Of a stretch of 64,000 nucleotides of DNA, positions 6,001 through 9,000 are shown piece after piece. The stretch is taken from NCBI RefSeq assembly GCF_056712565.1, contig NZ_CM160072.1, one strand, 5' to 3'. Positions within the stretch are counted from its first letter, which is position 1. Every line of letters starts with the position of its first letter. The position numbers are program-made.

Positions 6001-9000
6001 GCGCGGTATGGAACTGGATTTTCTTCTGAACCCGGTGGTGATGTACCAGGCTGTTGTTACAGATTTTTAACTCCATGAAAACACTATGCAAACGCAGCCA
6101 TACCCGGGGTGTCCCCTTGCGTTGTGTTCCTCAAGTTAATAGAATACATCGATCGTTACTATTATATTGATCGTTATAAACGATCGTTTGTAGTAAATGA
6201 CCTCCTCCGTGGTTGTCATGAAAATGCGTCTCAGGAAGGTTAAATAATGCACGAAAAGAACATCGCCCTGCTTTGTGATGAAGCCGACCGACTTTTGCAA
6301 CTGAACATTAATCTGCTCCGGCAAATGGTTGAGGAGCCAGATGTGTTATCTGACAGTAAGAACGAAAACAGACTGCTTTTTGATAAACAGAAAGCACTGA
6401 AAAGAATTGAGGAGCTGGAGGGCGAACAAATCAAAACCGCCCGCAGGGAGATGGTGCTGGCTGTTGTCGGCACGATGAAAGCAGGCAAATCAACCACCAT
6501 CAACGCCATTGTGGGGCAGGAAATTCTGCCTAACCGTAACCGCCCCATGACCTCTGTACCGACGCTCATCCGCCACGTTCCCGGAAAAACTGAGCCGGTT
6601 CTCCATCTGGAACATATTCAGCCTGTCCGCAATTTATTAATCACACTGCAGGAAAAACTCGCCACCCCGGCAGGACAGCAGGTCGCACAGACCCTGCAGC
6701 AAACCGGGGATACCCGCGAACTGCTGGATATTCTGACGGATGATGGCTGGCTCAAAAATGAATACCACGGGGAGGAGGAAATCTTTACCGGACTGGCATC
6801 GTTAAACGATCTGGTTCGTCTTGCTGCGGCAATGGAGACTGAATTTCCTTTTGATGAATACGCAGAAGTGCAGAAACTGCCGGTGATCGACGTGGAATTC
6901 AGCCATCTGGTGGGGATGGATGCATGCCAGGGAACACTCACACTGCTGGATACCCCCGGCCCTAATGAGGCCGGACAACCGCAGATGGAAGTGATGATGC
7001 GGGATCAACTGCAGAAAGCCTCTGCGGTTCTGGCTGTGATGGATTACACCCAGATGAACTCAAAAGCGGATGAAGACGTCCGTAAAGAGCTTAATGCCAT
7101 TGCTGACGTATCAGCCGGCCGCCTGTTTGTACTGGTCAATAAATTTGATGAGAAAGACCGCAATGGCGATGGGGCAGATGCCGTACGCCAGAAAGTTCCG
7201 GCAATGCTGAACAGCGATGTGCTGCCCGCCTCCCGCGTTTATCCCGGATCCTCACGCCAGGCATACCTGGCTAACCGTGCGCTTCATGAGTTACGGAAAA
7301 ACGGAACCCTTCCTGTTGATGAAGCCTGGGTCGATGATTTTGTCAGGGAAGCCTTCGGTCGCATGAAAAAAGATTACGTCTGTAAAGACAGCGAACTGGC
7401 AACTGAAGGGGCGACAGACCTGTGGGAATGCTCACTTATCGATCAACTGATAACGGAAGTCATACTGAGTTCACACTCCAGAGCTGCGGCACTGGCGGTT
7501 GATTCTGCCGCCGCAAAACTGATGCAGAATGCAGAAAATATCAGTGAATACCTGTCGTTACGCCATCAGGGGCTGATGCAAAGTATTCAGTCACTGCAGG
7601 CGCATATCACCAGCCTGCTTGAGGATATCCGGGAAATAGCAGACTGTCAGGAGCAGGTGACCGCTGATGTCAGAATGGCCATGGAGGAGATCGATGCCAG
7701 AACCCGGGAATTACTGACGGGGGTCTGCACCTCACTGGAAGAGGAGCTGAATGACTATTTCAGAAGCGGTAAACGCAAAGAACAGCAAATGCTGGAGGAA
7801 GAAAATTCAGCGCAGCCCCGGGAGAGAAACGCATTCGCTTTCTTTCACGATATTTTCGGAACCGGAAATCAGCATGACAGGATGCGGGACTTTGATCCCG
7901 ACAGCCCCGAAATAAAATTCAGTGATCGCAGGGAAGCCCTTGAACTGATGACGCAAATCGAATCGACCGTGACCAGCCTGCACCGTGAGGCTGAAGCACA
8001 GTTCCGGCCTGAGCTGGAGAAAATCGTCAGCGGGATTGAAACAGGTTTTCGTGGCACGGCCCTGTACGCCACAGAAAACATTGCCGGTCGCATCAATACC
8101 CGCCTGGAGGATGAGGGCTTTACCGTAAAAATCAGTTTTCCGGCAGTCAGTCAGTTACAAACCCGGCTCGCGGTAAAAACAAATCTGAGTGCGCTTATGG
8201 AGGAAAGAACGGAGACCGTCACCCGTCGCCGTCGGCAGAGTGGTTTATGGGGAAAGATTTGTGGAGCGTTTGGCACCAGTGACTGGGGCTGGGAAACCTA
8301 TAAAGAGGATGTGAGCCGCAGTGTTATCAATATCAACACCGTCAGGAAGGAAGTTATGTCACTGACCCGGGCATATTTCGGGGAGCTGCAGGCATCCATT
8401 GAGCAGGATATTAACCAGCCCGTCCGCCAGGAAATCGATGCCTTTTTCTGCGCATTCAGGGAGAAAGTTGAACAACTGCGTAACACGCTGATTCAGAGCT
8501 CTGAAGATCATAAACGCGATCAGCAGGCACAGGAACGGCTTACCAGGCGACTTCAGGCATTAAATGAAAGGGTTCCTGAGCTCATTACTGACAGTAAGGC
8601 GCTGAGGGAAGAGCTGGAGACAATGCTGTGACTTCACCATTTATTCAACAAATTGCTGATAACCGGGTATGTCAGGTACTCACCTGTCTTCCTGAAAAAT
8701 TTGTGGTTGATTTCGCAAACGGAATCGATGTTGCACAGGAGCATATCCGCACGGCCGGAGAGCGCACGTTCTTCCGGCGTTTAAAAGAGGGACTGACCGG
8801 CGAAGGCGCTGCACGGCAGAATGCCATCAATGCTTCGGTTGCACAGGGCCTTGAGGCGTCCCTGCGCTGGCTGACGGAGCTGACAACGTCACTTGCCACC
8901 ACAAACTACGCGATTACCCGGGTAAACGACAGGGTCAGTTCACTGGTCAGTGATACTGCCAGGCTGGCGCATTATTCCGCAGATACACGGGAGCAGTTAC

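Follow-up and report, generated by a model that had tools for sequence, protein, structure and literature searches.

Phase variation of the autotransporter gene agn43 (flu) in Escherichia coli depends on the regulator OxyR and the methyltransferase Dam. OxyR binds the unmethylated agn43 operator, represses transcription and shields the GATC sites within it; methylation of these sites by Dam prevents OxyR from binding and leads to the ON state, and both states are heritable, with switching at ∼5e-4 to 5e-3 per cell per generation (PMC4872104, PMC3764049, PMC2909390, PMC2328253). The gtr and opvAB loci of Salmonella use the same two proteins, with GATC sites in the OxyR half-sites and methylation that blocks OxyR (PMC2909390, PMC4856963, PMC8160106), and their cargo affects the envelope and phage sensitivity. 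Upstream of their promoters lie three or four half-sites that are occupied alternatively, and OxyR acts there also as an activator (PMC2909390). Here we describe a candidate switch of the agn43 type at positions 6117-6185 of a 64,000-nucleotide stretch of contig NZ_CM160072.1 (NCBI RefSeq assembly GCF_056712565.1), the whole of which is referred to below as the window. It lies before an operon that begins with a gene for a dynamin-family GTPase. Judging from its sequence, we put the probability that it is a functional homologue of the agn43 Dam/OxyR switch, acting on this operon, at roughly 0.7.

The element occupies the same chromosomal site as agn43 of E. coli K-12 and has the same left neighbour, yeeP. 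The K-12 site holds the cryptic prophage CP4-44, with the genes yeeP', isrC, flu, yeeR, yeeS and onward, which agrees with the gene order after yeeP given in the original prediction of this switch. The neighbour in the window is a truncated YeeP-family GTPase gene at 5595-6029 (+ strand; WP_001069647.1, as annotated by RefSeq in Nissle 1917, which is identical here), and its 3' end is near-identical to that of K-12 yeeP. The next ∼85 nt, between yeeP and the −35 hexamer, cannot be aligned with K-12; a conserved block then follows, past which the leaders of the two loci diverge again. A blastn search of E. coli genomes with the 116-nt core returned nearly only dynamin-linked copies, the agn43 regions being too diverged, and the K-12 region was therefore taken by accession and aligned directly. 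Local alignment of the window with the K-12 yeeP-flu intergenic region gave a score of 51, against 17.5 ± 2.3 (maximum 34) for 1000 shuffles (z = 14). This alignment had been named beforehand as a check, and it upholds the proposal that the architecture of the agn43 switch is retained here, with an OxyR-type site, three GATC sites and a promoter before the dynamin operon. The block conserved in both reads TAATAGAATA..CGATC..CTATT.TAT.GATCGTT.....CGATCG, the aligned sequences being TAATAGAATAAAACGATCAATATCTATTTTATCGATCGTTTATATCGATCG in K-12 and TAATAGAATACATCGATCGTTA-CTATTATATTGATCGTTATAAACGATCG in the window. On the evidence of these alignments, the core, bounded by the −10 hexamer and GATC-III, is homologous to the regulatory regions of K-12 agn43 and of other Ag43/Cah genes.

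The promoter of the putative switch comprises the −35 hexamer TTGCGT (6117-6122) and the −10 hexamer TAGAAT (6140-6145), both on the + strand and separated by a 17-nt spacer, all of which had been predicted correctly. TAGAAT and the 17-nt spacing are the same in K-12 agn43, where the −35 hexamer is TTGTCC. The −10 hexamer lies within an invariant block, TAATAGAAT, that is identical in K-12 flu, O157 cah, agn43 of uropathogenic E. coli (UPEC) and the Citrobacter and Enterobacter loci described below. Three Dam targets follow, GATC-I (6151-6154), GATC-II (6169-6172) and GATC-III (6182-6185), each in a GATCGTT context and with spacings of 18 and 13 bp, again as first noted; the intergenic region of 217 nt (6030-6246) contains no other GATC. 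K-12 agn43 likewise has three GATC sites, in CGATC contexts that start 6 nt after the −10 hexamer, with GATC-I and GATC-II 19 bp apart instead of 18 and GATC-II and GATC-III 13 bp apart in both. Read from the sequence, then, three GATC sites fall within ∼35 bp just 3' of the −10 hexamer and the predicted start, in the K-12 geometry bar 1 bp. The 1-bp indel lies inside the first OxyR half-site and therefore leaves the 15-7-15 frame of the operator unchanged. Since the Ag43/Cah allele of strain 673 (locus L004), with an OxyR score of 17/20, has the same 18/13 geometry as the window, this spacing variant exists in genuine agn43 regulatory regions.

The predicted OxyR site (6148-6184, + strand) is formed by the half-sites ATCGATCGTTACTAT (6148-6162) and ATCGTTATAAACGAT (6170-6184) with a 7-nt gap between them, and begins 2 nt past the −10 hexamer, as in Ag43 alleles. 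Scored at 20 positions against the consensus ATAGnTnnnAnCTAT-N7-ATAGnTnnnAnCTAT, it matches at 16 (8 in each half-site), the top match in the window; the validated OxyR site of K-12 agn43 scores 14/20 against the same consensus. In the K-12 RefSeq annotation isrC begins, 6 nt past TAGAAT, with the G of GATC-I. The geometry in the window is the same, and transcription is therefore predicted, by homology only, to start at G6151 of GATC-I on the + strand, so that the OxyR site would extend from about −3 to +34. The agn43 start is said to have been placed at the G of GATC-I by Wallecha et al. in 2002. As in K-12 agn43, the predicted operator of two half-sites would thus span +1 and all three GATC sites.

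In this respect the window differs from gtr and opvAB: it has a single operator of two half-sites over +1 and no sequence homology to the Salmonella loci. An arrangement of the gtr/opvAB type was rejected, no further high-scoring OxyR site being found near the 15-7-15 site. Control of the pap type by Lrp and Dam was rejected as well; it needs two GATC sites ∼102 bp apart in Lrp sites, together with a PapI-like co-regulator, whereas the spacings in the window are 18 and 13 bp.

The window contains 224 GATC sites, and at three places (5201-5230, 6151-6182 and 29825-29842) three of them are clustered within 35 bp. When as many sites were placed at random, at least one such cluster arose in 75% of the placements, and the cluster by itself is within chance expectation. 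These figures speak for a coincidence, in which three GATC sites merely happen to lie beside a promoter-like sequence in AT-rich DNA. The composite pattern TAGAAT-N4-CGATC...GATCGTT-N5-CGATCG, however, has a single occurrence in the window and none in any of 100 shuffles, and is beyond chance. The high score of the alignment with agn43 and the conservation of the switch elements across genera point the same way, and the alignments already refute a chance cluster, the probability of which we regard as negligible.

To define what is conserved, we aligned 15 switches: dynamin-linked copies from E. coli and E. albertii, K-12 flu, the agn43 gene of UPEC 536 and two more agn43 alleles, cah of O157 and other Shiga toxin-producing E. 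coli (STEC), an IMG/VR contig, and loci of Citrobacter braakii, C. amalonaticus and Enterobacter wuhouensis. What is kept, in front of three cargo types, is confined to the TG of the −35 hexamer, unchanged in every switch family aligned, TAATAGAAT, CGATC (with GATC-I conserved in all 15), GAT(C)G(T)T and CGATCG; neither flank of the switch can be aligned between families. Neither the hexamers nor the 17-nt spacing vary within a set of 15 dynamin-linked copies, representing 13 distinct alleles; the half-sites ATCGATCGTTACTAT and ATCGTTATAAACGAT are almost invariant, and polymorphisms cluster in the promoter spacer, just past the −10 hexamer (2 nt) and in the 7-nt gap between the half-sites. Polymorphic positions make up 5/42 of the hexamers and OxyR half-sites and 11/26 of the other positions (Fisher p = 0.007), among alleles that were taken one or two per identity class and are mutually related, not independent. 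Two of the 15 dynamin-linked alleles lack one GATC site. One has GATT in place of GATC-II, and its operon has decayed (rdcB is interrupted by a stop codon and the GTPase gene is frameshifted); the other has AATC in place of GATC-III.

The relatedness of these alleles and the two lost GATC sites weigh against a working switch, as do several further points. TTGCGT matches TTGACA at 3 of 6 positions, and a generic promoter scan did not call the TTGCGT/TAGAAT pair, picking instead an overlapping pair, TTAATA-18-TATTAT; the description of the promoter as near-consensus in the original prediction does not hold. We consider the pair credible because it is homologous to the agn43 promoter, with the same −10 hexamer at the same spacing. 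GATC-I is placed 1 nt differently in the first half-site from its counterpart in K-12. One alternative is a homologous relic, an element of agn43-type descent that is now an ordinary promoter, constitutive or repressed by OxyR, with no heritable states. The alleles that miss a GATC, and a leader and context unlike those of agn43, with no IsrC-type leader, are in keeping with such a relic. Yet all the elements known to matter in agn43 are kept, the OxyR match exceeds that of K-12, the polymorphisms avoid functional positions, and the elements persist in E. albertii and across cargo types. The large, lineage-specific and medium-independent difference in expression seen in strain MP1, discussed below, also fits bistability better than a constitutive promoter. 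We therefore think a relic unlikely and favour a functional Dam/OxyR switch.

If the switch operates as agn43 does, RNA polymerase would initiate at about 6151 from TTGCGT-17-TAGAAT. When the three GATC sites are unmethylated, an OxyR tetramer on 6148-6184 would block transcription and shield the sites from Dam (OFF); where Dam methylates them first after replication, OxyR would be excluded and the operon transcribed (ON). Each state would be inherited and switching would be rare. It is by analogy with agn43 that we infer OxyR binding, its sensitivity to methylation and the inheritance of the ON and OFF states at this locus.

The gene that follows the switch in the window is not an Ag43/Cah autotransporter gene but that of the dynamin-family GTPase, a 794-residue open reading frame that starts at ATG 6247 and is annotated as dynamin family by RefSeq, in accordance with the prediction of a dynamin-like gene downstream. 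An autotransporter cargo defines the gene family and not the mechanism. Like agn43, the switch lies in a CP4-44-like island and follows a YeeP-family GTPase gene, its conserved left neighbour. Past the five cargo genes, RefSeq annotates a DUF932 gene, an antirestriction protein gene, yeeS, yeeT, cbeA, cbtA and yeeW, then the core genes tmaR, yeeA and sbmC, and tmaR-yeeA-sbmC also lie downstream in K-12. Among the matches listed from metagenomes, 117 of 120 loci have a GTPase match upstream of the switch.

Four arrangements of cargo can be distinguished behind the switch. Ag43, followed by yeeR or DUF932, is found in K-12, UPEC 536 and others (type A). In O157 and other STEC, cah is followed, after a 110-nt spacer, by the dynamin-RdcB-patatin genes (type B; 635 of 5426 complete E. 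coli genomes). The arrangement of the window, with dynamin-RdcB-patatin directly behind the switch (type C), occurs in 1983 of the 5426 genomes and in E. albertii; this direct junction, present in ∼37% of complete E. coli genomes, includes Nissle 1917 and the O104:H4 and O55:H7 lineages. Citrobacter and Enterobacter loci carry genes for two small signal-peptide proteins with no assigned function (type D). The 120 metagenome matches listed comprise ∼96 loci with Ag43/Cah, 20 with a direct dynamin junction and 3-4 with Ag43 and then dynamin. From the switch to the dynamin gene, the window is 100% identical to Nissle 1917 (NZ_CP022686.1, 718409-718629), and this 221-bp region is present at two places in Nissle 1917 and at up to three in other genomes.

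We conclude that the switch is a backbone module of CP4-44-like islands, placed before a variable cargo slot, and its place in the island backbone with exchangeable cargo appears to be a new observation. The suggestion that the switch was inherited from agn43 is accordingly right as to homology and wrong as to ownership, the switch belonging to the island backbone after the YeeP-family GTPase gene. That the downstream cargo differs is likewise correct; its simple replacement is too simple an account, given the 635 genomes in which the dynamin operon lies 110 nt behind cah.

The type D loci were seen in C. braakii (L007 3977-5155) and at two more loci (L008 and L009). There, TAGAAT and three GATC sites with 19/13 spacing, with the promoter ATGACA-17-TAGAAT, follow a full-length YeeP-like GTPase gene and precede genes for signal-peptide proteins of 154 and 157 residues (phrog_5248 and phrog_3429). 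The DUF932/antirestriction/RadC backbone resumes after both small proteins, which represent a third type of cargo. A homologue of the 157-residue secreted protein is encoded after the patatin gene in two metagenome contigs (L091 and L109); the fourth open reading frame of the window operon is unrelated to it (BLASTP E = 2.1). A complete Gabija system adjoins the GTPase gene in the Citrobacter island (L007 6547-10105; PADLOC GajA 3e-235, GajB 6e-234), so that such islands do carry defence genes.

A fourth cargo, made up of lambdoid late genes in IMGVR_UViG_2534681766_000003 (L018 640-10787), was considered and rejected. This contig has the 3' end of the GTPase gene, a cah-type switch and its leader running into a truncated HNH gene, beyond which lie genes for a Q-like antiterminator, holin, terminase, portal, protease and major head protein. 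Because the HNH gene is truncated, and because similar cah-type cores and leaders in metagenomes precede Ag43/Cah, we treat it as a rearrangement junction, probably with a lambdoid prophage, and not as genuine cargo. A plasmid match (L005), being ridden with frameshifts, was also disregarded.

The cah loci of O157:H7 and other STEC resemble the window in gene order: GTPase, switch, cah, dynamin-RdcB-patatin, the adhesin gene being absent from between switch and dynamin gene in the window. About 45 nt after the GTPase stop codon match the window, the switch is of the same family, and ∼17 nt after GATC-III are similar. They differ in the first OxyR half-site, which has diverged (AACA against CTAT in the window), in the GATC spacing of 19/13, and in the ∼230-nt leader with a terminator that, together with cah, separates the switch from the dynamin operon. 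The cah-dynamin spacer of 110 nt contains no promoter-like or terminator-like site at either locus inspected (L016 and L017); co-transcription of cah with the dynamin genes is therefore plausible, and in type B loci one switch may, judging from this layout, control both the adhesin gene and the dynamin operon.

The leader of the window (6186-6246, + strand) is short, with a Shine-Dalgarno sequence, AGGAAGG, at 6233-6239. In alignments with both O157 intergenic regions its first ∼17 nt, next to GATC-III, are similar to the cah leader, and 6203-6246 is dynamin-proximal sequence, so that the leader looks like a composite of the two. Strain TR01 has the same 44 nt as the window before the ATG of its cah-linked dynamin gene (L016 3501-3545), and typical type B loci of STEC have 48 unrelated nucleotides there (L017 6680-6727), which suggests recombination between paralogous dynamin loci. 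The window looks like a cah-plus-dynamin arrangement that is without the adhesin gene, or like the product of the reverse event; type C could have arisen from type B by loss of cah, or type B from type C by its insertion, and either direction would serve.

Strong terminator hairpins are found just before the start codon in the agn43 and cah leaders (L001 2480-2515 and L017 3708-3735), that of K-12 being the 3' end of IsrC, and attenuation downstream of the switch is thereby implied at those loci. The K-12 agn43 leader is ∼220 nt long and has such a hairpin; that of the window, of 96 nt, has none and no IsrC-type terminator. No RNA family, and no IsrC-like RNA, was found in an Rfam scan of 5000-7000 at E ≤ 1, and the predicted fold of the leader RNA is not unusual (z = −1.3). 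The terminator scan flagged an inverted repeat formed by GATC-II and GATC-III, for which the dyad symmetry of the OxyR site is the better explanation.

The operon behind the switch begins with the gene for the dynamin-family GTPase (794 residues; 6247-8631, + strand; RefSeq annotation), where K-12 agn43 has that of the autotransporter. The protein has an intact P-loop and is a paralogue of CrfC/RdcA (YjdA): it matches the NCBIfam model NF007368 over its full length with 550 bits, below the equivalog cut-off of 1146, and is for that reason classed as a paralogue. The second gene (8628-9533, + strand; RefSeq) encodes an RdcB-family protein of 301 residues, to which no NCBIfam model matched, and its start and stop overlap its neighbours. 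The third (9530-10600, + strand; translation and RefSeq) encodes a patatin-like phospholipase of 356 residues with intact GGGxxG, GxSxG and DGG motifs, a weak match to RssA and a weak match to the PADLOC phospholipase effector (9.5e-5). The dynamin/RdcB and RdcB/patatin boundaries are overlaps of 4 nt. Two hypothetical genes (10736-11413 and 11429-11839, + strand; RefSeq) probably form the distal part of the same transcription unit. A strong terminator-like hairpin of 13 pairs with a T-run (11981-12010, + strand) is the predicted end of the five-gene unit, and a weaker candidate lies after the patatin gene (10620-10636).

RdcA (YjdA/CrfC) and RdcB (YjcZ) of K-12, to which the first two cargo genes, a dynamin-like GTPase gene and then an RdcB-family gene, are full-length paralogues, are described as a GTPase partner system of the diguanylate cyclase DgcE (PMC6510439). 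The island copy is ∼30% identical to them (PMC12922286) and below the equivalog cut-off; the island module adds the patatin phospholipase and two further genes, and lies on a mobile island behind a switch. Membership of the Eleos ('Dynamins', LeoA/LeoBC) systems was considered and rejected. The LeoBC match in PADLOC was partial (E = 4e-6, 24 bits), with no single stretch over threshold in the dynamin-family protein, and LeoA was not matched; with such weak matches only, the locus is not taken as a member.

Expression data that bear on the switch come from an RNA-seq study of E. coli MP1 (PMC12922286, BMC Genomics 2026), in which the Kapi1 lysogen MP13 was compared with the non-lysogen KP7; the two strains had been derived separately, and two colonies of each were used. 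In either medium, the genes most strongly up-regulated in the lysogen were a cluster of five, SID94_19700-19720. According to the authors, regulation of the cluster does not follow the lytic-lysogenic decision, and that of these dynamins 'has not been described' (PMC12922286). We find that SID94_19700-19720 of NZ_CP139039.1 are the dynamin, RdcB, patatin and two hypothetical genes, right behind a GTPase pseudogene (L023 9484-15572). The intergenic region of this copy has TTGCGT-17-TAGAAT and three intact GATC sites in the geometry of the window, and the co-regulated unit matches the transcription unit predicted in the window. By analogy with agn43, heritable ON and OFF states in two lineages may explain the MP1 difference as well as an effect of the prophage would, and a difference of this sort is what unlike phase states should produce (compare PMC3764049).

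Genuine regulation by Kapi1 could also underlie the difference, and this is a further point against a phase switch. It belongs to a wider alternative in which another regulator, prophage- or island-encoded, as proposed for Kapi1, is the main one and the GATC/OxyR site is minor. The up-regulation in lysogens is consistent with such a regulator, as is that of a paralogous operon on PAI-CFT073-aspV, although part of the signal of that operon is affected by multi-mapping reads (PMC12922286). The same authors' finding that the cluster does not follow the lytic-lysogenic decision, and the use of only two colonies per separately derived strain, argue the other way. The 217-nt intergenic region yielded no site for any other regulator, and transcriptomic misattribution has a precedent in agn43 itself, for which Lrp and MqsR were wrongly called regulators (PMC3764049). 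We consider another main regulator very unlikely, and prefer a Dam/OxyR switch. Paralogous copies of the operon, such as that at the second place in Nissle 1917 and that on PAI-CFT073-aspV of MP1, may possibly switch independently.

Two other groups of GATC sites in the window deserve a brief description. Four sites (5175, 5201, 5224 and 5230) fall in ∼65 nt upstream of the start codon at 5166, in the promoter or 5' untranslated region of a TonB-dependent receptor gene on the minus strand (3001-5166). Epigenetic control of the Fur/Dam type at 5175-5233, like that of the sci1 type VI secretion system (PMC3145626), is conceivable by analogy. The cluster at 29825-29845, three sites within 18 bp, is in coding sequence and serves as a control for chance clusters. 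The protein encoded there is one that we take to be HisB-like. The position in the Nissle record extrapolated from the 6030 anchor falls in hisD, so that collinearity between the window and NZ_CP022686.1 may be imperfect over the stretch to this point.

The mechanism proposed here is of a known kind, and a dynamin operon as its target is new, with a prior description possible. We found no report that links this operon, or any dynamin gene, to Dam, OxyR, GATC sites or phase variation, in a search that left the subscription literature largely uncovered, and no lists of unmethylated GATC sites in the texts of the ST131, O111 and SMALR methylome studies. To our knowledge agn43 has so far been essentially the sole member of the Dam/OxyR phase-variation regulon of E. 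coli, with gtr and opvAB as the examples in Salmonella. A broader proposal, which we offer as tentative and somewhat doubtful, is that islands of the CP4-44 family carry the switch as a portable cassette for epigenetic ON/OFF control, coupled to at least three unrelated cargos, that the dynamin module may be phase-variable in more than a third of E. coli genomes, and that in O157 one switch may govern both Cah and the module. On this proposal the dynamin/RdcB/patatin module would be a costly system for membrane remodelling, linked to c-di-GMP, or directed against phage in the manner of abortive infection, expressed by a subpopulation only as a form of bet-hedging.

The analysis supplies a testable regulatory hypothesis for an uncharacterised dynamin/patatin operon. 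Differences in its expression between strains or clones may reflect phase state and not regulation, a consideration that applies to the 2026 study of MP1 lysogens. If the switch functions as proposed, the operon would be a second widespread class of genes in the Dam/OxyR phase-variation regulon of E. coli.

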